Translations under genes and position numbers: made by a program | The notes under the pieces: model-generated | What the model saw: only the letters and a program-made list of their open reading frames with translations | What the model was told of the DNA's origin: nothing | The model's database searches: none | Shown: positions 5,752-61,700 of the stretch, piece by piece | Layout of the letters: every line of letters begins with the position of its first letter | Position numbering within the stretch: the first letter of the stretch is position 1 | Assembly: GCA_001600815.1 (NCBI GenBank) | Contig: BCKZ01000011.1 | Location: forward strand, 413,622-477,621 | Length of the DNA stretch: 64,000 bases | Source of the DNA: Alloascoidea hylecoeti | Taxonomy: Eukaryota | Reading direction: 5' to 3'

Positions 5752-8035
5752 GATATTTCTGAATAGCAAATATTAAACTCAGAAACGAAGAAAAAGAGGA
5801 AATAGACTGGTATTTATATACGCGGAGATCTGACTATTTTAATACTTTTTGAGTTGTTTTGCTGACAAATTAACTTTTCACTGAAATAATATGCCATCAT
5901 GCGGCTTGTCAACTAAAAAAATTTATCACAATTTTTTGAATATTGAATATCGATATTTATATGGAAATGTAAAAATGATTCAAATAATCACTCTCAATTG
6001 CCAAATTCCAATCTCTAATATCCAATGTTCAAATATCAAATATTCAAACAAATAAATACAAAGATGTTGTTATTGAAATAGCTTCAGCACGGCGGGGATT
6101 TTGATCTCCTGGTGTTAAGGTTCACAAATCCCGCAGCATGTATCCTGTCGCCGTTAATCCCCCGACGTAGCTTGAAATTCCTGGTAATGTAAATATATAG
6201 ATCCAGCAATATTGCTGGTGACTCAGTGGGTAAATAATTTTTTTTGAAAAAGCTAAATATTTCTTTTCGTTTTGGGAATATTCCTTATTCCAAGATTAAC
6301 TAATTGATCTATATGGTATTCAAAATAATCATAGCCTATATATTATAATTAACAACCACCGATTTTCTTATAGATGCACAATTTTGATTTGACGCATGGT
6401 ACTATGAAATATTATATAAAACGGTGATGTGCTAGGCTGTCTTCTATATGCACCTACATCGAATATGGAAATAGTTCTGGTTTATTTCTTATTCAATCGC
6501 TTATATTCCATATTTCAGTCACTGGTCACATTAGAATCTACAATCCCAAGTGATATCCAAATAGCTCTGGTAGTTAAAACTTAACACCCGTATATCTATT
6601 ATTTACTATCTAGAAAAATCAAATATGTATCTTGTCAACACCTAACTTTTGCAGGTGTAATTAATTAACAACGTTAACTGGAAGCCTTACATTCGCTACA
6701 AAGTGCATGGCTAGATAATTATATAAGAAAAAACAAATCACTCATAATATATAAATGGTTATGAAGAGCATCCTGAAATTGAAATTAACTATTATTTATA
6801 TAGATACTAAACGACTTAGTAAACATTAAGGGCAATATATTATGAAATCTAGTAAATAACTCTCAAGCTTGGGCCATTCCATAAATTTTTAATTTTGAAT
6901 AAACTGGTTTTAGTATAACTTATCACTACAATCGCAACAAGCTGCAGTAGTTATAACAGCCTATTTAAGATCTGGAATACCTAGATCTCTAGCTGAAATT
7001 CTGAAGTATAATTGGTATTTGTGTCAATTGCAACGTTAACGTTTAATTAATTACATTAAAACATTACAGCTTCCATTCTTTCTATAGATCTATTCTCCTA
7101 CTGAATCCAAGCTTTTTTCACTATATCTTAGAATGAACATAATATTAAATTTGAAAAGGAGAAAAACAAAAATAAAATAACAAGTAAAAGTGCGATGAAT
7201 CCAAATCCTGTAGATTCAAAGTATTTCATCAATAATTTAACTTTTTCTTAAACAATTGAAATTAAAATAACGCCCAAAAGAAGTATAATCACTTAAAAAC
7301 ACATGTACAGCCACGTCTAAAGTTCAGCCTTTTTCCGGCTACGAAACCTATAGTTACCGACAATTTGCAGCTAGATACAACACCATTGTTCTGAGACCAC
7401 TGTAATCAATTGGAATCTTTTGAAAATACTTCTCTGTTTCTCTGGTTCTTCTCATTCATAAAACGCCTTTTACGTGCTAAAAATGTTCCATACCCATATT
7501 TTTTCAGAAGGGTTCCCAGTCATGTACCATATCAACAAAGCCTTTGTCCTTTCTAAATTCCATTGTACCCAATCTAAAGTTTAGATGTTTTTTCACCAAA
7601 ATGGAATCTTTATCATATTTATGATATGATGAATAGCGAGTTCAATCAAACAAATATTAATTATAGTTAGTATTTCAATCGAATAACACGTGTCTCTTCC
7701 AATAATGTAGTAGCTTTTTTAGTAGCTAAGAAATCACCACAAAGTCTTACTTTAGGGTTGTACAACGGAAATCTGCATTCAGTTACACTTTTCAAATTTG
7801 GATTTGCAATTGGAGATGTAAAGAGGGGAACGTATGATATTATTGAAACTTATTTTATACTTTATATTTGAATTAGAAAGTTTTACTAGAATGTTTTAAA
7901 TAATATACATTATTATTATTATTATACAAGATTTATGCGAAAATGATAAATAAAAGCAGTTATATAGTATGAGAATGAAGTTAAATGAAATCCGAAATGT
8001 AATAAAATATAAATATCAATCAATATTAATTATGC

Positions 8036-9087
8036 TTAACAAGTTTTGGATTCAGGGACTGATCCTGATGAAGGGATAATTTCAATCTGACTATCATAGG
8101 ACCCAATATTTGATGCTGATTGTGCAATTGAAGCTTGAGAGTTATTCAAATCAAATACAACATATGCACTTCTTAAAAATGAATTTCCTAGAATTGAAAC
8201 TGGTCCCGAAGTAGGAATCAATTTCAAGGTGCATTTGTTTGCAGACTTAGATGTCTTTAGGAGGTCTTGAAGAGGAACACTTATAGTGGAGCATCCAAAG
8301 GAGAATTCAATATTTCTAGAAGAATCACAAGGAAGTGAGTATCGGGAGTTGTGTTGATTATATTGAGTGCCCAATGAGGCGGCAATGTTAGCGATAACAT
8401 CAGCAGGGAGATAACTTAATGTTAATCCTGTGTCAAAAAGAACATCAAATTTCGATTCTGAACCTCATTCGAAATCCCATCCGAAATCTTAAGACCTGTT
8501 AACTCAACGGTTGTTCTTGTATCACTTGTGATTGGAACTGTGACTAAATCTCCAGTATACTTGGAATGGTCAACTCCTTCAGATAATATGGTTCCTTTGT
8601 CTTCTGAAGCTGAATCTAAATGGATGGGATATATTCGGGACTCAATAATTCCTGCATTGATCTCCTCCCAATGAAGCTAACCCAATACCGAACACTCCCA
8701 TACTGTTGTCAGAATGAGTATCAACTGCAAATGTAAAATCATTAACAGTTTCTCCCCCTAGAACGATATAGTCGGTAACCCAGTCACCTGTGGTAACACT
8801 ACAATCTCCATGTTCAACTCGAAAGTTATCGTTGATTTTGCTAATTGAAGTAGACTTCTATGATCGAAAGTTCCTAGTGATTGACATTTACCATTACAGT
8901 TAAGGTTTTCAGATACAACGACCCATAAATCGGAAGATTCAGTATCAAAATTAACGGTAATCTTTTGAGGAGGATTACCGATCTCGACATCAACCTAATA
9001 CTATTTTTCATTTTGTAGGAACACATCAAAAGCCGATTTCTGAGCTTTGATTGCGTCCAATTGTAAAGTAGTATAAGAGTTTTTCAT
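8036..9087 (-). pseudogene. Secreted aspartic protease (pepsin A1, yapsin/SAP-like) pseudogene, copy 1
   Basis: Reads NEK*Y*VDVEIGNPPQKITVNFDTESSDLWV, GVFGIG, FDTGLTLSYLP, ILGNSFLRSAYVVFDL. It has in-frame stops, frameshifts, first catalytic DTG changed to DTE, and a deletion in the signal/pro region. Confidence 0.88.
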
Positions 9088-9841: not shown

Positions 9842-10067
9842 CATCAGGATCAGTCCCTGAATCCAAAACTTGTTAAGCATAATTANTATTGATTGATATT
9901 TATATTTTATTACATTTCGGATTTCATTTAACTTCATTCTCATACTATATAACTGCTTTTATTTATCATTTTCGCATAAATCTTGTATAATAATAATAAT
10001 AATAATAATGTATATTATTTAAAACATTCTAGTAAAACATTCTAATTCAAATATAAAATAAGTTCAA
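9842..10067 (+). repeat. Inverted ~225-bp copy of the protease 3' end and 3' flank (matches 7843-8070)
   Basis: Reverse complement of 7843-8070 with few differences; contains one N at 9886. Confidence 0.9.
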
Positions 10068-16502: not shown

Positions 16503-17184
16503 AAAAAAAAACATATTAGTGCTAGCATCAATATTGCACAGCCCAAATAAGTTGGAGTTAATTAGAAGTAGTATGATAGAACTAGAGAGTCATAAATAAT
16601 TTCTAATTGATATCTTCTGGATACTTATTTACCTAATATTATTTGAATAATACGAATTTTGCAGTATCCAGTAAGTTATAATGTTTTTAGGTAATTATTA
16701 CATGGTCATGTATACAGTTTTCTTTGGACGAATTATTCTGATTCCGGTTAAATTCCACAGGCAGCTGTTATATAACCCTTAGCCATTACTTATATATTAA
16801 ATCACCATCCTAAGTCTACGTCGAATAGAAAAGACAAAGCTGAGGTTTTTTTTGGTCGAGTTTCCCTTTTCATAGAACAACTTTATATATAATTTTAATG
16901 GCACGTCAGTGTATTTTTTTGACTCTTATTTTGATTGACGGTTCTGGTGAAGGAAAGATAAACGAGAGGTTTGAGTTTTACCATCTGTTCATGAAAGGTT
17001 TGACTATTATATATTTGAATTAGAAAGTTTTACTAGAATGTTTTAAATAATATACATTATTATTATTATTATACAAGATTTATGCGAAAATGATAAATAA
17101 AAGCAGTTATATAGTATATGAGAATGAAGTTAAATGAAATCCGAAATGTAATAAAATATAAATATCAATCAATATTAATTATGC

Positions 17185-18347
17185 TTAACAAGTTTTGGAT
17201 TCAGGGACTGATCCTGATGAAGGGATAATTTCAATCTGACTATCATAGGACCCAATATTTGATGCTGATTGTGCAATTGAAGCTTGAGAGTTATTCAAAT
17301 CAAATACAACATATGCACTTCTTAAAAATGAATTTCCTAGAATTGAAACTGGTCCCGAAGTAGGAATCAATTTCAAGGTGCATTTGTTTGCAGACTTAGA
17401 TGTCTTTAGGAGGTCTTGAAGAGGAACACTTATAGTGGAGCATCCAAAGGAGAATTCAATATTTCTAGAAGAATCACAAGGAAGTGAGTATCGGGAGTTG
17501 TGTTGATTGTATTGAGTGCCCAATGAGGCGGCAATGTTAGCGATAACATCAGCAGGGAGATAACTTAATGTTAATCCTGTGTCAAAAAGAACATCAAATT
17601 TCGATTCTGAACCTCATTCGAAACTCCCATCCGAAATTTTAAGACCTGTTAACTCAACGGTTGTTCTTGTATCACTTGTGATTGGAACTGTGACTAAACC
17701 TCAACTCCTTCAAATAAAATGGTTCCTTTGTCTTCTGAAGCTGAATCTAAATGGATGGGATATATTCGGGACTCAATAATTCCTGCATTGATCTCCTCCC
17801 AATGAAGCTAACCCAATACCGAACACTCCCATACTGTTGTCAGAATGAGTATCAACTGCAAATGTAAAATCATTAACAGTTTCTCCCCCTAGAACGATAT
17901 AGTCGGTAACCCAGTCACCTATGGTAACACTACCATCTCCATATTCAACTCGAAAGTTATCGTTGATTTTGCTAGACTTCTATGATCGAAAGTTCCTAGT
18001 GATTGACATTTACCATTACAGTTAAGGTTTTCAGATACAACGACCCATAAATCGGAAGATTCAGTATCAAAATTAACGGTAATCTTTTGAGGAGGATTAC
18101 CGATCTCGACATCAACCTAATACTATTTTTCATTTTGTAGGAACACATCAAAAGTGGATTTCTGAGCTTTGATTTCTGAGCTTTGATTTCTTTACCAGTT
18201 TTTCCTGTGATGTTTCTCAACACCGAAGGATCAGGTTTTAATGAATGAACGAGAGAATTGTAATCAATGGAATCCTTGAGCGACGGAAGTACCAATTAAT
18301 GAAGCTAAGATTGCGGCCAGTTGTAAAGTAGTATAAGAGTTTTTCAT
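17185..18347 (-). pseudogene. Secreted aspartic protease pseudogene, copy 2
   Basis: Signal peptide MKNSYTTLQLAAILASLIGTSVAQ, then stops (TGA, TGA, TAA, TAG-TAT-TAG), DTE instead of DTG, and frameshifts. The C-terminal 112 codons translate identically to copy 1. Confidence 0.88.
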
Positions 18348-50654: not shown

Positions 50655-53600
50655 TAATAAATATTTTCTTATTTCTTATATACATATGTTTTATCTGTGT
50701 TGTACCTGTTGAATAAAAATTAGTGATGTATTTCAAATTTTTTTTCATTTTTCTTTTCTTTCTATATGTGTGATGATGATATATTTTTAGACCCGATTTT
50801 ATAGAGTGTCTAGGGCAATTTAATTAACTAAACAAATAAATTTATGATGTTGAATTTACAAAGATCCAAGATTTTCACATACTATTCTTCCAAATTTAAA
50901 CTAAAAGGGCGAACAATTAACTATAAGCAGATGAATTTACAATCAATTGAAGTTGAATTTTCAATGATCTAAAACTTCCTCATAGCTATACTATTATCCA
51001 TGACATGTATGGAAGATTCCAAAACATCTTAACATATACTACCCTTGTTAACTAGATTTCAACTTCAATTAAAGTTAAACTATGGTAGATATAGCTGGTG
51101 GATTTTCAAATTCTCATGGGTTATATTATTACAGTATTATATTTCCTTAGAAACTGCAGCCTATATGACGGTGATATCAATTAATTATCAAGTATTGAAT
51201 TAGAAATGCTACAATACTAATATTAATGTTTGGTATACAGTATATCTTTAAATAAAAAATGATAGATGAAATTATTTCTCTACACTGAAATCAATTCTTT
51301 TTTAATTAATAGTGTATTCGGGTCATCGTTGCAATTGCTACATATTTACGTAATTAGCGTATAAATATTGATTTCTCATGAACAAGCAATTGCAAGTCCA
51401 ATTGTAGAACTATTAGTGTTGATCGTTAATATTAATATTATCATATTTGGTTCTAATCCACAATTCAATAACCTTGCAATTGAGGTCCAAAGTTATAGTT
51501 GTAAGTTTATAAGACACCTTATTTTATATATTTAATATTTTTAATTATGAAACAGGAAAGATTATTGCCTGAGTATGTGTACTACATTTTGTAGGATATA
51601 GATCATCTGAAAAATATTTGAAATGGTATTTTAATTGTCAATTATTCAGGCTGCTATAACTTGACAATTAACAGAATATTAATCATTTCTAATTCAAATT
51701 TAAATAATAATATAAATCATATGCATCCCTCCAGTCCACAGTTCATAATCCACAATCCACAATTGATTCAACAACCTTGCAAGATATTGAGAAATATAAA
51801 TAAGACATTTACTATTCATTTCGTAATTGGTTATTTATTTCCCGATCGTCATTATTAAGATCCTAACCGATATAAATCTTAGATTATAGATCTATTTCAA
51901 GTTAAAATTTGACACACTACAGCTAGAGCTCCTCTGTAATTAACACCCATAACTAGCTAGATAGCAGATACTATAACCAAAATTTATAATTAGCACTTGT
52001 AATTCATCTTCTTTAGAAAATACCTCGAACTCTCTTAATTGCTTCGTCCATTTTTTTTTAATTATATCCTTGTTATTGTCATCCCCTAATATAAATATAA
52101 CTGTGGCACGTTTTGCAGTGAATCATTATAAGATTGAAAATTATGCATCCAATTATTCGTCCTATAGCTTACTATATATAATTTCAGTATTTATTCTTAA
52201 ATACGTATTAAGCCTGGGTGATGGGTCCATCTAGAAGAATTTCCTAATAATAAGTTTATCTATATGGTATACGGTGAAAGTTTATACAAAATTTTAATGA
52301 AGTCATACAATTCGTACATCTAAACATGTAGGCATAGATGTTGGTAGCACTGGGTACATGCAAATGTGACTAAAAATTGTTCGATACGATTCACTGTGAA
52401 ATCAACAACCGTTTACTGTCAAATTTACCCATCTCATGCGTTTGACCAATTTCGCCCATCTTTCAACAACCACAAACCAACATTGTAAAGTTCGTGAACC
52501 ATCTTAAAAGAGGATTATTCATTAAAGTAGTATAAATAAAAATTACATAAATAAAAATTTCCTTGTTTTGGAGTAAGCAGTCTTTAATTGTTCGATCATC
52601 TATTGGACTACAGGTGATAGTTGAGGAACTTATGAATATAATATCGTTGGATCTTTCAATCTCTCTGCACCATAACATAATAAGGGATATAGGTAGTCAA
52701 ACATAGAGAGTCCTGGTTATATTAATGTAGTGCAAGTTTCACAATTTTCATGATTTTGTGTGAAATTATAAGAATTTATTCTTCGCGTATAACTCTGTGA
52801 CCGAAATGGGTTGGTCAAGCGAGATAATGTGATAAGTCAAGTGAATGGTATCCATCCTTTTATATATTTACATAACTCTCCGGATACGACAAAGATAAAT
52901 ACCTCTAGAAGATGACTAATTCGAGTTTTTCAGTGTACTTTCACTCCGTAATCTTTTGTGATGGCTTTGTATAAGCAACATCGAAGCGTTTTGAATACCA
53001 TAATGTATACTAGAATTTTAAACTTTCTCAATTTCTAGGCATTCTTTTTTTTTTTTTTTTTGGTTTTGCTATACGCCACCTTGATGTGAAGTTGAGTGTT
53101 TTTTGAAATTTTAAGTTTTATGGGGCATAAAATATCAAAGATGGATTCCTAAACTGGCGATTTTTACGAAACTTAAAAATATAATAATAATAAAAAATTG
53201 ATAAAATAATCTCTACAATGAGTCTACATTCTCAATTGTAAAGACCACTATAAATTAAGATTAAATTAAAGTTTTCTAATTAATCGTTGTTGGGATCTAG
53301 CCCTGTTATATTATTAAGAAGTTCCATATAATTCTATTTGCCACGGAGTATAAGTTATATGAGAAGGTTTTCTTGAACACAAGCTCGGGGAATTCATACA
53401 CAAGTAAACCAACACAAACATAATGTGTGTTTATACTATCTGTTTACCGTGTTTTTTTTTCCTTCGTTTTATTTAATGTGTGCTTGTCTTCTATTCGATT
53501 GTAATTGCAACTCCAAATGTGAATACAAAGAGGCAAGCTTTACTCAAAACCATAAATCTAATAATGAGCATCCTCAGCCGTATAGCACTAGCACTGATAC

Positions 53601-55019
53601 GGAGATATTAACAGGTGGTTTTGCGAGTAAGGAACAATGGTGAAATAATTGACTTGCCTTAGTTCTAATTATGATATTGGTGTAATTTTCCCAGTTATAA
53701 CTTATAGTAATTTACAGCAAAATGAAACAATATACCTATACCTAAACCTATACCAGTACTAGTGCTTGAGAACGAATGATTTAGGGTATTTCATTTACAT
53801 AGCTAGAATTACTGATAACGACATTGGTAGTAATTGAATATTTATAATCAGTGATATAGTTAATAGAAAATTTTAAAATAGAAACAAATAGCTTAATTTT
53901 TAAGTGAATTTATACCTATATCCAAAAATAACTACTGTACAATATACAGTCATTTAAAAAAAGTTATGAATAGATTTAAATTTTTCTATCATTTAATTTT
54001 TGACAGATGTTTTGGGAAATAATGTTTAATGTTTTCAATCTAAACGTTTCCTCTTTTGTTAAGTCAATAATATACATGTTAACTATTATTACATGATTTA
54101 TAATAACAATTATGTCATCATACACTTACAGATAAATGTGTTACCGTGTAAAAATAACCTTCTGACAATGGTATATTAACATATAACTCTCTCATTACAA
54201 AAAATGAAGGATTAAATAGAAATATTTGGATTCCATATAGTATCTCCTAATGTAGTAATATATGCATATATTTAAGCTTCATTCTATGAATATGCATGCT
54301 AGTTGGCGCTTAAGCTTTTTATAAAATTACCAAATGTAGTTAGAATAAATACTATAATAATTATTATTTTTGTTTTTGGATTATATTATTTAATTGAATA
54401 TGATAGAAAGATATGAAAAGATATATTCAATTGTCTGCGAAGCTATAAATATTTAATCAATCCAATCGATGCAGATGTATGTATAGTGCTGTACTGTAAA
54501 CTCTATTATTTCCCTGCTTGGAAAAACCGACATTCCAACAATATAATTAAGTTTAAATCAGTTCGAAACCAAAGTTTTTAAGTTTAGATTTTGTTTAAAG
54601 GAGGAAGTATGAGGATGGTTTAAAGATTGTTTTAAGAATAAATCAAAAAATTAAATTATTATGAATAATTGTTTGCGATGCGATATATTTTATAAAATTG
54701 CTATACAAAAGTATAGGAATTTAGAATTTAGATTTCAGATTTCAGATTTCAAATAATTTTAATGTCTATTTAACTAATGGTATTATTTATAGTTTCCATT
54801 TATTTAGAGGTATTATGAGTATGTTTTAGGAATGAAAATAAAATGATTCAGCCATTTTTAGAGATATTATGATAAGAATAGGTAATTTCTTTTAATAGAT
54901 GTTTACTGAAATGGTAATATTGATCAATTTGTAGTAATTTGTTCGTTTTGGGATTGTAATATATAAATAAATATATCTGTCACAAATTATAATCGTTTAA
55001 AATATTTATTCTTCTTTCT

Positions 55020-55140
55020 ATGACAATGTTACAGCGAAACCCAACGATATTTATGATCATATTAATATTTATTAATTTAACAAATGTATTATCAGCACCA
55101 TTACCAATATCATTAACACAAATTGATAAAGAAATAATAT

Positions 55141-55196
<56 letters not shown>

Positions 55197-56384
55197 CAAG
55201 ATATAGAATCTGGTGAATCTAATTTATCTACAGATACAGATGAAAGAAAAAAACAAAATGATAAAAGAGCAATTGTTTATGTTACAAAAGATCCTAATAT
55301 TGTTACATTTACAGATACAAATTGGATAGTTTATGTCACAGTTGATGTTACTGTTACTGATGGTCAAGCAGCAACACAAGTAACTACTACTTCACCAATA
55401 GTGCCAACTAAACAAACTACACAAATAGTGGCACCAACTACCACACAAAAACCAGTACCTACTACCAAAACAACCTCACAAATACTACCTACCACTACAT
55501 TACCTACTACAACATCAACCACAGCAGTACTTACAACATCATCCCCAACAGGTACAGGCAATGGACCAAAATCAGCAATTATCCCAAATGCAATATCGTA
55601 CAGTCCATATAACAATGACCATAGTTGTAAAACATATGATCAAGTATATCAAGATTTGTCAAAGATTCAAAAACTTGGTATTAAAAGCATTAGAGTTTAT
55701 GGCACAGATTGCAATTCACTGAATACGATTGAACCAGCAGCGGAATCTTTAGGATTAACAATAAATCAAGGTATATGGTTTGGTAATGGGGAGATTTATA
55801 AAGTCGATGGATTGGTTGAAGAATTAATTGGATGGGTTAAACAGTCAGATTCCAACGGAGGGCAAGGATGGGGGATATTTACGATGATTTTGATTGGGAA
55901 CGAAGCGATTAACCAGAATTTCTGTTCGGTAGATGAGCTAAGCAGCAAAATCAACACCATCCGGGGCAAATTACGAGCAGCAGGTTATACGGGGAAGGTT
56001 GGCACAGCAGAACCGCCGGTCAGTTACACCACCCACGCGGGGCTCTGTCACAGTTTGGATTTGGCCGGGATCAACCCTCATGCGTACTTCAACGCGGCGA
56101 TATCGGCGGCACAGGCCGGGGGGTATGTGCTCTCGGAGAAGGTGGCGGTCGAGGGTGTGTGGGGGTGTGGAGGCAAGGTTTCCATCACAGAGACCGGGTA
56201 CCCGGCAGCCGGAGCCGTGAATGGGCTGAACGTGCCGAGCGCGGCGAGCCAGAAGGAGGCGATCGAGAGTATTATGGAGAGCGTAGGTGGCGACGTGACG
56301 CTGTTTACGCTGTACAACGACTTATGGAAGGACGCAGGCCCGTTCGGCATCGAGCAGTCGTTCGGCATCGCTGATCTGCTGTAG
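55020..56384 (+). CDS. SCW11: GH17 cell-wall glucanase, Scw11-like, 454 aa
   Basis: Signal peptide, poly-Asn, KR site and Thr-rich linker, then SYSPYNNDHSCK, IRVYGTDCNS, IGNEA, ITETGYP and YNDLWKDAGPFGIEQSFG. Confidence 0.88.
55143..55193 (+). repeat. (AAT)17 coding microsatellite (poly-Asn in the Scw11 pro-region)
   Basis: Directly visible. Confidence 0.9.
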
Positions 56385-56496
56385 CCTAATTACTGGCGGT
56401 TTCATTGGCTGCGGGGGGAGTCACCCGGACTCTGCGGCCAGTATAAATAAAATTAAAGGCCCATTTTCCATTTTTCCTTCCGTGTGATATTCTGTT

Positions 56497-58782
56497 ATGG
56501 TGTTCAAATCGTTTGTGTGTGTTTCCCGCCACGCGGCCCTGGCCAAGAACCTGTTTGTCGCGTCCACAGCGGCGTCCGGCCAGCCGCTGTTCCGCAACAG
56601 CCTGTGGCCCAACCAGACGCATCCCCCGCGCTCCCGCCAGCTGCACCCTCACCCCCACCATCCCTCATCCACACACCCCGTCGCCAGCAGTCACTCCAAT
56701 GGGCATGCCCAATTCCCCAAATTCCAACACACACAAACACAGCAGCACGTGAAACCACAGACCTCGGAACTGGAAAAACACGTGCTCTCCATCGACTCTT
56801 GCTACCAATCGGGTGACTATCTAAAGGTGATAGACCATTATCACCATCTAAACCGTCAGAATTTGGTGGTTTCTTTGGATACTTATAATAAGGTCCTTAA
56901 GTCGATTTCTAAAATTAGATTAAATCAATTCCAAACAATGGAAGATAAATTATCATCGCTATTGACTGTTTATGCCGATATGCTATCTCATCTAATAACC
57001 CCAAATGTTAAGACTTATACAATCATTGTTAATACTCTGTTAGATGGCTCATTAATTACTTATCACACGCAAGAATTAATTCCTTCGTTTTCTGATGTTT
57101 TACCGAGACATTTAAATTCGAAAAATTTATTGAATCCAACTTTAAATGCTGTTTCAATGTTAAAAGAATCTGAAGTTTATTTCCAAGTTGCATTAGATGT
57201 ATTTTTAGCAAGTTTTATTGTTAAAAATGAAAAAAAATTTGATCCTAAAATTTATTATAAATTAATAAATTGTTTTACAATTTTTAATAAATCTTTAACT
57301 CATGAAGCATCAATTGAAAATGATAAAAAATTAATTAAAATTATTAATTTAATGGAAAAAAATAATATTTCTAAAAATGAACAATGTTATTTAGATTTAA
57401 TTAAATCTTTTGGTTATAAAAAAGATTTACAATCTGTTTTAACGATATTTGAAGATTATAAATTAAATTTAAATTTAAAACATGAAAAAGAATATCAAAT
57501 TTATGGTGCATTAATTGAATCTTTTGTTTTAAATAATGAAAAATCAAAAGCATTACAATTTATGGATAAAATTGTTTCAAGAGATGAAGGTGAAAATAAT
57601 ATTCATTTAGTATCTGGTTTTATATCTGGTTTAATATCAATTGGTGATGTTGAAACATCATGGAATTTTATACAACATTTACAATCAAATTCTACAACAG
57701 ATTTAACTTCATTACTAGATATGTCATTAATGAGTAGATTAATTACATGTGCGTGCCAAAATGATAATTTTAAATTAGCAACTTTAATATTTGATTTTAT
57801 AGTACCACAAAAACAAATCAATACACAATCTTTTTGGGATTTTAGATGTGATTATATATTACAATGTATTAAAGAAAATGATTTATCAAAAGTTTTAACA
57901 ATATTAAAAGAAACTGAAATAAGAGAAGCATTTTATGATGAATCAACAATATTAGTTGTTTTTAAATTCCTTGTTGAAAATGATTTAAATCATCAAGCAA
58001 TGGAAATGTTAATAAATCAATCAAAAAGAATTATAATTGAATTTTCAAATTATGATAATGAAAGATTAATTGAAGATTATCCATGTGTTTTAAAATATCA
58101 ACAAGAAATTTGTTGTGATTTATTTAATAAAATTGTTGAATTTTTATCATCAAATGGAAAATTAAATTTAAAAAATTGTTTAGAATTATCAAAAATTAGT
58201 TTTTTTAATGCAAGTTTATTTGAATTATCATCATCTAATAATAATAATTCAAAAAATGGTTCATTGATAATTTTAAAGAAAATTTGGAATTCAAGAATAA
58301 ATCATGATGATGAATTTTTAGAATTAATAAATAAAAATGAATTATTAATTCCTGAAATTGTTTCATTACATACAAATTATTTAATTGATCATCAATCTCA
58401 ATCTCAAAATTCAACTTTAACAAAATCAACAACAATAATAAATAATGATATTAAATATAATTTAATGATTTTTATAAAAGATTTAATTATTCAAAAACCA
58501 TTAATTTCAAAAAATTTAATTAATGATGTTACACAAGTTTTAAAATTAATTAATGAAAATGATTTATTAGATGATTGGATTAAATCAAATCCTGAATCAT
58601 GGTATAAATCTCCTTTAATATCACCATCATCATCATCAACAACAAATGGAGGAATTCAATTAATTAAAGATGATTCTGATTCAAACTCTTTAATTAATGG
58701 CATACCGTTAACTCCTTTATCTTTAAGTTCGGTTCCAATTGTTGGAATCCCAAGTATAAATGATTATGAATTTAATAAATGA
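56497..58782 (+). CDS. RPM2: Rpm2-like mitochondrial RNase P protein subunit / PPR-type protein, 761 aa
   Basis: MVFKSF start, LHPHP motif, and LEKHVLSIDSCYQSGDYLKV..LLTVYADMLSHLITPNVKTYTIIVNTLLDGS resemble the recalled N-terminal half of S. cerevisiae Rpm2. Confidence 0.75.
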   Translation: MVFKSFVCVSRHAALAKNLFVASTAASGQPLFRNSLWPNQTHPPRSRQLHPHPHHPSSTHPVASSHSNGHAQFPKFQHTQTQQHVKPQTSELEKHVLSIDSCYQSGDYLKVIDHYHHLNRQNLVVSLDTYNKVLKSISKIRLNQFQTMEDKLSSLLTVYADMLSHLITPNVKTYTIIVNTLLDGSLITYHTQELIPSFSDVLPRHLNSKNLLNPTLNAVSMLKESEVYFQVALDVFLASFIVKNEKKFDPKIYYKLINCFTIFNKSLTHEASIENDKKLIKIINLMEKNNISKNEQCYLDLIKSFGYKKDLQSVLTIFEDYKLNLNLKHEKEYQIYGALIESFVLNNEKSKALQFMDKIVSRDEGENNIHLVSGFISGLISIGDVETSWNFIQHLQSNSTTDLTSLLDMSLMSRLITCACQNDNFKLATLIFDFIVPQKQINTQSFWDFRCDYILQCIKENDLSKVLTILKETEIREAFYDESTILVVFKFLVENDLNHQAMEMLINQSKRIIIEFSNYDNERLIEDYPCVLKYQQEICCDLFNKIVEFLSSNGKLNLKNCLELSKISFFNASLFELSSSNNNNSKNGSLIILKKIWNSRINHDDEFLELINKNELLIPEIVSLHTNYLIDHQSQSQNSTLTKSTTIINNDIKYNLMIFIKDLIIQKPLISKNLINDVTQVLKLINENDLLDDWIKSNPESWYKSPLISPSSSSTTNGGIQLIKDDSDSNSLINGIPLTPLSLSSVPIVGIPSINDYEFNK

Positions 58783-61700
58783 ATCCATAGTTGATGTTAA
58801 TACATTTATTATGGTTATGATTATTATCGTTAAATGAATGAATGAAATAAAATATTATACAAATTTTGCATATATCACACACTTTAGTTTTTTTTTTTTT
58901 TTGAAAATCATCGATATCTTTTTTTCATATTATTGTTTATTTTATAGACCTAACCATTTTTAGTATCCTGTCTTTTGTCTTTGTGTTTTTAGAATCTTCT
59001 TTAATTGCAACACATTAATATCATTCTATATAATTTGTTTATCGCCAGATTCGCCATGTTCTTTTTTTGTTTTTCATCTATACAATTACAATTGCAATCC
59101 AGTCACTAACTAACAAACCATATTTGAAATATTTCATTTGTTTAAAATGAAGTTTGCTTTTTCATATATTTATTGATTGATGTATGTAATCAATTTCAAT
59201 TTCATTTTTTTCATTTACACATAATATTAATTTGAAATTATGTTTGATATCAATTACATCATTAATCATTAAACACTCAACCACACCACTCTTATAGTTT
59301 ATATAGATCAGTTTTAATTAAATTATGATTATTTAATAGTTAATATAATGATCTTAAAACTCGAAAAATATTGTAAGTTAATAATTTGACACAATTGTAA
59401 AATAAAAAAGTAATGCAGTATGCTTCTACTTAATTTCAGTATGTCTGTATATTTCGCTTCTTTTGAAGACACATTATTCGTAAAACTTAAAATTAGAAAA
59501 TGACAACAATTATCATGCACCGCCGAAATCCTTTGAGCTTTTACTGAGAAATTCCGGGAATTAACCACATCTTAGAGTCGAATCCAATTATTCTTTTGAT
59601 TGACATTGATCGGTTTCAATTTTGATATAGTAAATACCAGAATTATTATGCTTGGTAATTTCTCTATTCCTCCTGAGTGTGGTTTAATTATTTAAGCTTT
59701 AAGGACCATTATAATCAGATTACAAGTTATTAGGTATTCAAGCTTACAACTGATCATAGTACATTCATATATTTTCTACAAGTAGTTAGATTTTAGTTTA
59801 ATTATTTTTATTATCAACATTATATAAGATATTGGTAACCCGAAAGGGGGACACTGATTCTTTCACATTCTGAAATCATTTAACTTGCGATCTACTAGTA
59901 TATTTTCTAAAACATTATTTGTGGTCCCTTTTTAAAAGCCCATCCTTTTTCCATTGAATAGAACCCTTGATTTTCCTACTTCTCCATAGTACGAGCCTTA
60001 AGAAGATAGATAGACTCTTTTCTATAGACGTAGATGATGTCCATATGGGACTTGACAGCTAATCGTGGCATGCTGAAATTTGGAGTTTTAAGCTTGAAGC
60101 TGGTGAGCTCATAGCACAAAAAAGATTACAAAAAAATCATTGAATGTATATTATAAGAATTATGAAATCGAGTTGATTTTGATATTGGTACTATTTATAA
60201 TAAATTATATTTGTTTCTGGTTTGATGTAATAATTTTTAGTATCCGAGAATGGTACAATATTAACAATAATCATTGAGACAAGAGGAACCAGTTGCAGAG
60301 GTATGATCTTAATAGTAACTTAATTGACGGCAGTCAGCACAAATATTTAGTAAATCTCCTAAACAATTCTTTACATATATTATTGAAGGCTCTATTCCAT
60401 CTGATAAACAGCTTCAATTATAAATCATAGTTAATATGATGAAAATTAAGTTACATATGCATTCTTCAAATACAAGTTCCTAAAGAATAAAAAAAAAAAG
60501 CTCAACTGTTCTCAGTACCTGCAGTATATCATATTATTAATTTACAGTTTATATTAAATTTTGTTGTATCTATAATTGTAAATTAGTATAAATACGTAGA
60601 TGTTAATTTTCATTGTTTGTTCAATCCAGATTCCAGATATAGTTAAACCTTACTACTATCAAACTTAAATACAAAACAAGAAATACTTAGACTGAATAGA
60701 TGACCTAAACTTAAATTCTTACAGGTTGTAAAATAATATTTGCAGTTAGTTATGATTACTGGGATATACCAATATGTATTTCAGTTACAATAAAAAAATG
60801 TCTTTCGAAGAGTATTATTTTAATCACGTAAGCCATTGTTATTAGTCTTATAATGGTTTGTACATATTTTACATTATTATGGAATCTTTCATGGCTGTAT
60901 ACGGTACAGTGAAGTCATAAGCTTTAAAAATGTTCTTGATCATCATTATTAAATTAAATTCAAAAATTATGTAATTATTGACCTTAGATATAACTTGAAT
61001 ACACACTTAAACTTATTGAAATTGATTCAAATTAAGCTATATAGTCGGTCAGTTTAAATTTAGCAATTGATATTGAAATTGAATTTTGTTGTTGTTGATT
61101 AAGTGTTCTAGATCCATCATACGTATACCAAGCTTAATCTTGTATGAAACATAAATCTATTGAGCTTAATAAAGTCATCTAAACCTCATTAAAACAATAA
61201 TAACTGATAGAAACGACATGGTACAGGCTTCCTCGATCTTCGGTATGGGCGGTTCCCCTGAAGTATCTCAATTGAGTAGTTACCCTCCAGTGTTTCCTTT
61301 TAATGTAAATTTGATCCGGATATCGCAATTAATATTATCACTCCAAACACCAAATCTTTGAAGCATGTATATCCAGAATGAATCAACTACTTGTTGTGGA
61401 TGGATAGCTATCATGGATAAGTTATACGTACGATTATACATGTAATCAGTTCATATTAAATCCTGTATTTTTTCTTGCCTTGGGTAGACATTTCATATGT
61501 AGGTCAATCTAACGGTGAATGAATTCAAAATAGAGATCAACTTGAAATTGTTCTCACATGAATTTTCTTCGTTTATAATCTTTATTTGGACTTTACCTTT
61601 GAAATATACTTCACTATATAGCGATATAAAGTGAAATATTTAATTATAGCTACTGCCCTATAGGTTGTTATTATGAATATTTATATCGCTGTCATTAAAA

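Follow-up and report, generated by a model that had tools for sequence, protein, structure and literature searches.

A kilobase-scale GC island centred on the SCW11–RPM2 spacer of Alloascoidea hylecoeti, a candidate recombination-hotspot footprint of GC-biased gene conversion

We describe a pronounced GC-rich island in the yeast Alloascoidea hylecoeti, located in a 64-kb stretch of contig BCKZ01000011.1 (assembly GCA_001600815.1, positions 413,622 to 477,621 of the forward strand; this whole stretch is hereafter the window, and its own numbering is used throughout and in Table 1). The island straddles the junction of two tandem + strand genes, taking in the final ~170 codons of an SCW11-like glucanase gene, the short spacer that follows, and the initial ~120 codons of RPM2. 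We lean, though not firmly, towards reading its composition as the mark of a stable double-strand-break hotspot at the RPM2 promoter, coupled to gene conversion that favours GC (population-scaled bias B of ~5). The lack of a donor, the classes of site affected and the shape of the island all fit a GC-favouring process that acts in situ and weakens with distance; among known processes, GC-biased gene conversion around a long-lived break hotspot is the best available one with these combined properties.

The island stands alone in the window, whose overall GC is 30.8%. In 300-bp intervals GC peaks at 0.637 (56001–56300), the rest of the window having a mean of 0.303, a standard deviation of 0.051 and a maximum of 0.427; in 150-bp intervals it is continuously at least 0.43 from 55825 to 56898, with a peak of 0.707, and elsewhere never exceeds 0.493. 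Neither scan found a second such island within the 64 kb. The base counts with which the initial annotation had introduced the island proved exact: 9 G+C of 60 at 57301–57360 and 40 of 60 at 56101–56160.

The rise pervades every class of site, in the order expected from the freedom of each class to change. At third codon positions the G+C fraction (GC3), taken over 30 codons at a time, climbs from 0.00 to 0.83 along SCW11 and falls from 0.90 to 0.00 along RPM2. At fourfold-degenerate sites GC is 0.12, 0.44 and 0.80 along SCW11, then 0.82, 0.30 and 0.04 along RPM2, and at twofold sites G/C-ending codons make up 47–76% within the island versus 2–4% in the AT-rich parts of the same genes. First and second codon positions (GC1 and GC2) climb too, from ~0.3 to ~0.6 and ~0.5, respectively, and the observed/expected ratio of CpG within the island is 0.92, compared with a background value of 0.72. 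The original description, of a signal that fades inside intact open reading frames (ORFs) and lies mostly at synonymous sites, agrees with the GC3 profiles, with the qualification that GC1, GC2 and the amino acids shift as well. The gain is thus common to synonymous, non-synonymous and non-coding sites, as expected of a biased-conversion footprint.

The sequence immediately around the island is itself unusually AT-rich. Among the 25 500-bp intervals of lowest GC, 22 directly flank the island, at 54651–55350 and 57001–58700, so that the local contrast is even larger than the comparison with the window implies. RPM2 beyond the island has a GC3 of 0.05, far under that of the other window genes (0.19–0.31). 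As a speculation, a hot site might suppress breaks nearby, which would explain the very low flanking GC.

To describe the shape of the island, every third codon position was scored as G/C or not, and models were compared by the Akaike information criterion (AIC). A step function, with best edges at 55850 and 56910, has an AIC of 945.3, and the graded models beat it by a ΔAIC of ~50: a plateau with exponential tails reaches 895.3 (plateau GC3 0.81, tail length constant 234 bp), a plain Gaussian 897.3, and a Gaussian on the logit scale, the form expected when fixation bias opposes AT-biased mutation, 893.1 (centre 56367, standard deviation 452 bp, height 4.72, background GC3 0.051). The corresponding logit-scale exponential is intermediate at 911.6 (centre 56385, length constant 647 bp, height 6.65). 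The likelihood profile places the centre at 56350–56400, where the SCW11 stop codon gives way to the spacer, so that it abuts the 112-bp promoter-containing spacer upstream of RPM2. The symmetry about the spacer claimed at the outset holds. The claim of fading edges holds as well. In the two ramps, runs of G/C-ending versus A/T-ending codons number 75 (expected 69.5 ± 7.2) and 88 (expected 72.2 ± 7.4), with no sign of patchiness; since codons of the two kinds are interspersed, the edges are graded site by site.

The encoded protein has been reshaped along with the DNA. We compared SCW11 with 90 homologs over three segments, an AT-rich part (residues 186–277), a ramp (278–349) and a plateau (350–454). 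In that order, the summed content of Gly, Ala, Arg and Pro is 0.17 (homolog mean 0.20), 0.28 (0.19) and 0.32 (0.22); the plateau value is reached by none of the 90 homologs, and in the AT-rich part the protein lies under the homolog mean. Because protein composition follows DNA composition within a single gene, the pattern is the mark of a force acting at the level of DNA rather than of protein-level or codon-usage selection. Divergence does not follow the same course. Mean identity to the homologs is 0.451, 0.473 and 0.492 in the AT-rich part, ramp and plateau, and the ratio of query–homolog to homolog–homolog identity is 0.84, 0.75 and 0.86. The unraised divergence of the plateau (0.86 versus 0.84) fits a fixation bias better than local hypermutation.

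The proposed mechanism would run as follows. The SCW11–RPM2 spacer would be a long-lived site of double-strand breaks, most likely meiotic, and each repair would copy a stretch of the homologous chromosome around the break. At sites where A/T is mismatched with G/C, the G/C version would be transmitted more often. Conversion tracts would begin at the spacer and stop at variable distances, so that the push towards G/C would be strongest beside the spacer and fade within a few hundred bases into both genes. In the long term nearly all free A/T would be replaced by G/C, and amino acids would be driven towards those with GC-rich codons where the proteins tolerate the change. Within the spacer, GC is 0.63 in the 5' 56 nt and 0.30 in the 3' 56 nt, the latter opening with TATAAATA at 56441–56448 and containing T-runs as well. 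By its letters TATAAATA is a TATA-like element, presumably functional as such; it and the T-runs are probably promoter elements retained by selection, and this AT-rich part would have been held against the general push in that way. The logit rise in GC3 corresponds to a B of ~4.7–6.6 against the local baseline; by our own arithmetic B would be nearer 3 if the baseline GC3 were 0.2. We infer all three components of this account, namely that breaks occur at the spacer, that their repair favours GC, and that they are meiotic.

Several observations weigh against this account. Within the island, the public contigs of four sequencing runs (X1–X4, introduced below) show no differences, and the AT-to-GC fixation bias is thus read from composition. 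Eight other intact ORFs of the window lack a GC3 rise at their ends (means of 0.26, 0.24 and 0.21 for the first 50 codons, the middle and the last 50, respectively; not significant); because of this, the site would need to be a singular, super-hot one and not a case of a general promoter effect. The effect on GC3 reported for Saccharomyces cerevisiae is small, with amplitudes of ~0.12 and 0.09 (PMC3020949), and the very existence of biased conversion in budding yeasts is disputed in the literature (PMC9246145). The strength needed here surpasses anything documented in budding yeasts, and a B of ~5 needs frequent outcrossing sex together with a large population. Finally, the GC3 of ordinary genes in the window (0.19–0.31) lies below the non-ORF GC of 0.295, and the neutral baseline is uncertain for that reason. 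Such a placement of gene GC3 under non-ORF GC is unusual if third positions are near-neutral.

The island also carries a strand asymmetry. It had been noted initially that its left half is G-rich and its right half C-rich on the + strand, and the raw counts (Table 1) do differ between the halves (Fisher p = 1e-7). Most of the jump, though, is due to amino-acid content, because codon positions 1 and 2 carry the main share: skew at positions 1, 2 and 3 is +0.50, -0.08 and +0.11 on the left and -0.35, -0.44 and -0.22 on the right, where ten ordinary ORF segments of the window range from -0.03 to +0.44 at position 1. The residues in excess are Ala, Gly, Glu and Val at the SCW11 end and His, Pro, Gln, Ala and Arg over residues 1–120 of RPM2, whose N-terminal stretch, rich in His, Pro, Gln and Ala, is encoded by the C-rich half. 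Jumps of equal or greater relative size are also seen at other places in the window, including 55620 and 3800. What is left at synonymous sites is marginal. Fourfold sites have G:C counts of 42:20 on the left and 22:26 on the right (p = 0.032, or 0.034 when stratified by amino-acid family). Twofold sites lean the same way without reaching significance (endings of the A-to-G type 76% left and 47% right, of the T-to-C type 62% and 66%). The two parts of the spacer alone do not differ significantly (19:16 versus 7:10), and AT skew at third positions is alike on both sides. The suggestion of a long-lived, symmetric and strand-polar process is accordingly borne out in its symmetric GC component, whereas the strand-polar component is weak and mostly a matter of amino-acid composition.

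The asymmetry nonetheless has a counterpart, and a more striking one, in the protein. Residues encoded by G-first codons account for 0.48 of the plateau of SCW11, compared with 0.33 ± 0.03 and a maximum of 0.40 among the 90 homologs, and those with C-first codons are rarer there than in the homologs. Over SCW11 residues 278–454, 45 positions depart from the consensus residue (one shared by 50% or more of the homologs), and 24 of these are unambiguous single-step changes; G was gained in 11 and C in 3, with five C>G and no G>C, although the numbers are low and the homolog consensus can only approximate the ancestral sequence. On the other side, the RPM2 N-terminus gains His, Pro, Gln and Arg, and not Gly. 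A fuller version of the hotspot account would add this polarity to it: the island would be the fossil of a single, extraordinarily hot and stable meiotic break site, with biased repair about an order of magnitude above that of S. cerevisiae (B ~5) and a mirror-image strand asymmetry (C lost and G gained on the 3'-ended strand of each side) in both synonymous and amino-acid changes. We regard that full combination as doubtful, though worth entertaining.

The strand asymmetry also speaks for a different outcome of such breaks. Recurrent breaks in the spacer, whether meiotic or mitotic, might be followed by error-prone synthesis on single-stranded DNA with no transmission bias, the synthesis itself producing A/T-to-G/C and C-to-G changes on the strand whose 3' end lies at the break; heterozygosity would not be needed. 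At human meiotic hotspots, C>N and A>N mutations are reported on the forward strand to the left of the break and on the reverse strand to the right, namely on whichever strand has become single-stranded (Hinch et al. 2023, PMC7615360), and the polarity of the island equals that pattern, its left half gaining G and losing C on the + strand and its right half doing the opposite. The composition of the plateau, the inferred SCW11 changes, the residues gained by RPM2 and the leaning of twofold sites all point in this direction, and break-repair mutagenesis would account for the C>G excess better than GC-biased gene conversion; a pure GC bias leaves that excess unexplained, because C>G keeps GC content constant. 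Against it, raising GC at fourfold sites from ~0.05 to ~0.8 by mutation alone needs a local AT-to-GC rate increased ~100-fold, protein divergence in the plateau is not raised, and the support from skew is subject to the marginal synonymous signal, small samples and consensus ancestor already mentioned. We consider mutagenesis of this kind improbable, albeit deserving of attention.

Selection for locally GC-rich DNA, whether for chromatin or insulator function, transcription termination, R-loop control or a structured RNA, would account for the location of the island exactly where the terminator and promoter of two tandem genes meet, and a cluster of C-runs in the first part of RPM2 could form a G-quadruplex on the - strand. 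The gain, however, peaks at third codon positions in either reading frame and has forced amino-acid changes, which speaks for a pressure filtered by coding constraint and not for a selected sequence. No other gene junction of the window shows an island. A structured RNA gene, which is what usually lies behind GC islands in AT-rich genomes, was considered as the cause and rejected: no tRNA genes were found, no hit reached the Rfam gathering score anywhere in the window or E ≤ 1 over 55600–57100, and the folding energy of 56300–56620 is no better than that of shuffled sequences (z = +0.42). We rate such selection as a rather slim prospect.

Slightly slimmer is the prospect that the tract was copied from a GC-rich source (by introgression, from a hybrid subgenome or from a paralog) and has since been partly eroded. 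Copying would yield a local GC jump inside intact orthologous genes, but the edges here are graded, by the ~50 units of ΔAIC and the unpatchy ramps described above, whereas a copied tract should have sharp boundaries, and uniform AT-biased decay would not make edges fade with distance. None of the 90 homologs resembles a donor: identity is alike over the three segments, and in the plateau the best single homolog reaches 0.59. Nor did a scan of metagenome contigs with the SCW11 protein find a relative, none of the 583 pattern stretches that it matched encoding one. The initial annotation had argued against horizontal transfer, and both the missing donor and the graded edges side with it.

A replication origin, which had been put forward at first as an alternative to a recombination hotspot, fares worse and in our view is quite improbable. 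Promoter-associated GC-rich origins are reported in Komagataella phaffii, as elements of <200 bp with a 20-bp motif containing a TYGAAC core (Liachko et al. 2014, PMC3945215), and an origin of this type could bring about a skew switch through leading/lagging mutation asymmetry. In yeast the leading strand is reported to be C- and A-rich (PMC3459929), a polarity that predicts G > C to the left of an origin and C > G to the right, as observed. The sign of the skew matches the polarities of break repair and replication equally and cannot choose between them, but its size and its confinement to the island argue against replication. In S. cerevisiae the replication skew jumps by ~9% and lasts for kilobases (PMC3459929), whereas here it is limited to ~55940–56830, about 500 bp on each side, and is mostly amino-acid composition. 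Origin firing is not known to raise GC, which leaves a GC3 of 0.8–0.9 decaying over ~250–450 bp unexplained. The TYGAAC core occurs 44 times in the window, at or below the chance mean of 58.9, with a sole island copy in RPM2 codons 2–4, although this is the K. phaffii motif and may not be that of A. hylecoeti. An origin thus explains neither the GC gain nor a skew so narrowly restricted.

A chimeric assembly (already named in the initial annotation) or contamination, the concern raised by an extreme jump of composition within one contig, is scarcely credible, since the same island appears in public contigs of four runs from three studies (X1–X4, placed on 53500–59500), with its edges bridged, and both reading frames are continuous across those edges and align to homologs (SCW11 to the homolog consensus through its last residue). 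X1, X2 and X3, which possibly include the source of the window itself and are not fully independent, each supply a single contig across 55205–58805, with 0, 0 and 2 differences, none inside the island; these contigs break at low-complexity repeats (55129–55204 and 58806–58912) away from the island edges. X4, from another study and not flagged as a possible source, supplies one contig of 839 bp, free of differences, across the left edge (AT-rich at its start, 55534, and GC-rich at its end, 56372), one of 166 bp (56468–56633) and another from 56844 onwards; the gaps in its cover (56373–56467 and 56634–56843) were given no weight. Short joints and loose ends among the contigs, with sides of just 21–25 letters in AT-rich sequence, were taken as spurious. 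Over 53500–59500, all differences between the window and X3, which is metagenome-derived, are A>G, T>C and T>C plus a 1-base deletion, at 58243, 58260, 58515 and 59173, in AT-rich sequence outside the island.

The island can be set beside several published systems. In S. cerevisiae, meiotic breaks concentrate in promoter-containing spacers and GC3 falls from gene ends inward (Marsolier-Kergoat 2011, PMC3020949). The island resembles those gradients in having its maximum beside such a spacer, in its decay with distance and in the proposed cause. It differs in amplitude (~0.76, compared with ~0.12 at 5' ends and 0.09 at 3' ends there), in decay length (~230–450 bp, compared with ~1 kb and a tract stop probability of ~0.0009 per bp) and in being one locus, in a window whose eight other ORFs lack a gradient, where the S. 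cerevisiae figures are a genome-wide average. In Cryptococcus neoformans, GC-rich hotspots of recombination and gene conversion flank and lie inside MAT (Sun et al. 2012, PMC3390403, citing Hsueh et al. 2006). There, as here, a local GC peak is centred between two genes, and in that case it is tied to gene conversion experimentally. The Cryptococcus peaks are modest, lie in a genome of middling GC and come with conversion measured in crosses, whereas the present contrast is extreme and known from sequence alone. The mouse Fxy gene extends across the pseudoautosomal boundary, and the part in the very highly recombining region has undergone a strong rise in GC (Galtier and Duret 2007, via PMC12290510). 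It shares with the island a large GC rise in part of an intact gene and many AT-to-GC amino-acid changes, but is the one-sided edge of a large region, not a two-sided ~1-kb peak centred on a spacer. Human hotspots share the mirror-image asymmetry, with C lost and G gained on the strand that has its 3' end at the centre; the human pattern comes from de novo and rare variants and extends ~2 kb per side (PMC7615360), whereas ours is deduced from composition, is confounded with amino-acid content and has a synonymous p of ~0.03. The K. phaffii origins share with the island a GC-rich element in a budding-yeast promoter region; they are not reported to recode neighbouring genes, and the island holds no meaningful match to their motif.

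Table 1. Features of the island and its surroundings (window positions)
Feature	Position	Strand	Basis
GC island, entire (GC3 0.69 inside, 0.09 outside)	55850..56910	none	best step-model edges
Island plateau (GC3 ~0.81), with tails on both sides	56066..56654	none	plateau-plus-tails model
G-rich half (G:C 163:113, skew +0.18)	55940..56400	+	base counts
C-rich half (G:C 67:129, skew -0.32)	56500..56830	+	base counts
SCW11-like GH17 glucanase gene, 454 aa	55020..56384	+	ORF, translation, homolog alignment
Spacer, 112 bp (SCW11 3' flank, RPM2 promoter and 5' leader)	56385..56496	+	sequence, base counts
RPM2, mitochondrial RNase P protein subunit, 761 aa	56497..58782	+	Pfam match, translation
C-run cluster, possible G-quadruplex	56608..56679	-	regex scan

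Both genes are recognizable members of known families. The top named matches of the SCW11-like ORF are SCW11 and GH17 proteins from many budding-yeast orders, at no more than 52% identity. The RPM2 ORF matches the Pfam family RPM2 (PF08579, E = 2.7e-18) and also PPR families, and its in-frame GC follows the order GC3 > GC1 > GC2. A protein search with RPM2 returned one 100%-identical copy from the same species and otherwise a single match, at 27% identity. In the N-terminal region of SCW11, an (AAT)n run at 55143–55196 encodes ~18 successive Asn residues, and public short-read contigs end there.

The window as a whole is gene-poor for a yeast and subtelomeric in look, with 10 ATG-started ORFs of at least 120 aa in 64 kb and 10-kb stretches that have no long ORFs (e.g. 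33.4–44 kb). Its ORFs include an MFS transporter, a sugar transporter, an OPT transporter and a CDS1-like gene. An aspartyl protease is present as two frameshifted copies ~9.1 kb apart (7961–9052 and 17110–18174, 98–99% identity), one of them split over four frames at 8036–8994 on the - strand; they represent either misassembly or pseudogenes of a subtelomere-like repeat. An inverted repeat of 162 nt, 99% complementary (7909–8070 and 9842–10003), holds the sole N of the window, at 9886.

Small sequence elements within the island were examined as well. The idea that GCGGGGGGAG (56411–56420) might be a motif shared among such islands was set aside: it occurs once, at least one match arises in 16 of 100 shuffles, and there is a single locus to compare. 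An inverted repeat of 25 nt, 76% complementary, has arms at 56151–56175 and 56642–56666, placed near-symmetrically about 56408, the second of which sits in the C-run cluster. This repeat and the cluster may both be by-products of the mirrored skewed composition. A telomere-fusion-like origin of the TG-rich and CA-rich inverted arms was rejected, as both arms are coding and the left one lies in the homolog-aligned part of SCW11.

The island has a practical consequence for annotation. A public gene call for RPM2 (P0102, 638 aa, identical at 636 of 638 residues) starts at a GTG, codon 124 of our ORF (56866), at the exact right edge of the island, and so omits 123 GC-rich codons, among them those of an N-terminal segment that is a putative mitochondrial presequence. 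Composition-trained gene callers may truncate genes at such islands in AT-rich genomes.

The role of GC-biased gene conversion in budding-yeast genomes is disputed (PMC9246145; PMC2997560), and known yeast footprints in GC3 amount to only a few percent. The best available description of the island is as an unusually extreme case of this known type of footprint. A limited literature search found no published case of a budding yeast with a spike so high at the kilobase scale, which does not prove that none exists. A spike in which GC3 goes from ~0.03 to ~0.9 within 500 bp, across two conserved genes, would make an exceptionally clear and strong example, with its centre, width and strength readable from the sequence and with protein composition measurably altered. 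If the hotspot account is true and more such spikes are present in the genome, sequence alone would give a map of hotspots at base-pair scale, and A. hylecoeti would offer a natural system in which to settle whether budding yeasts have strong biased gene conversion.

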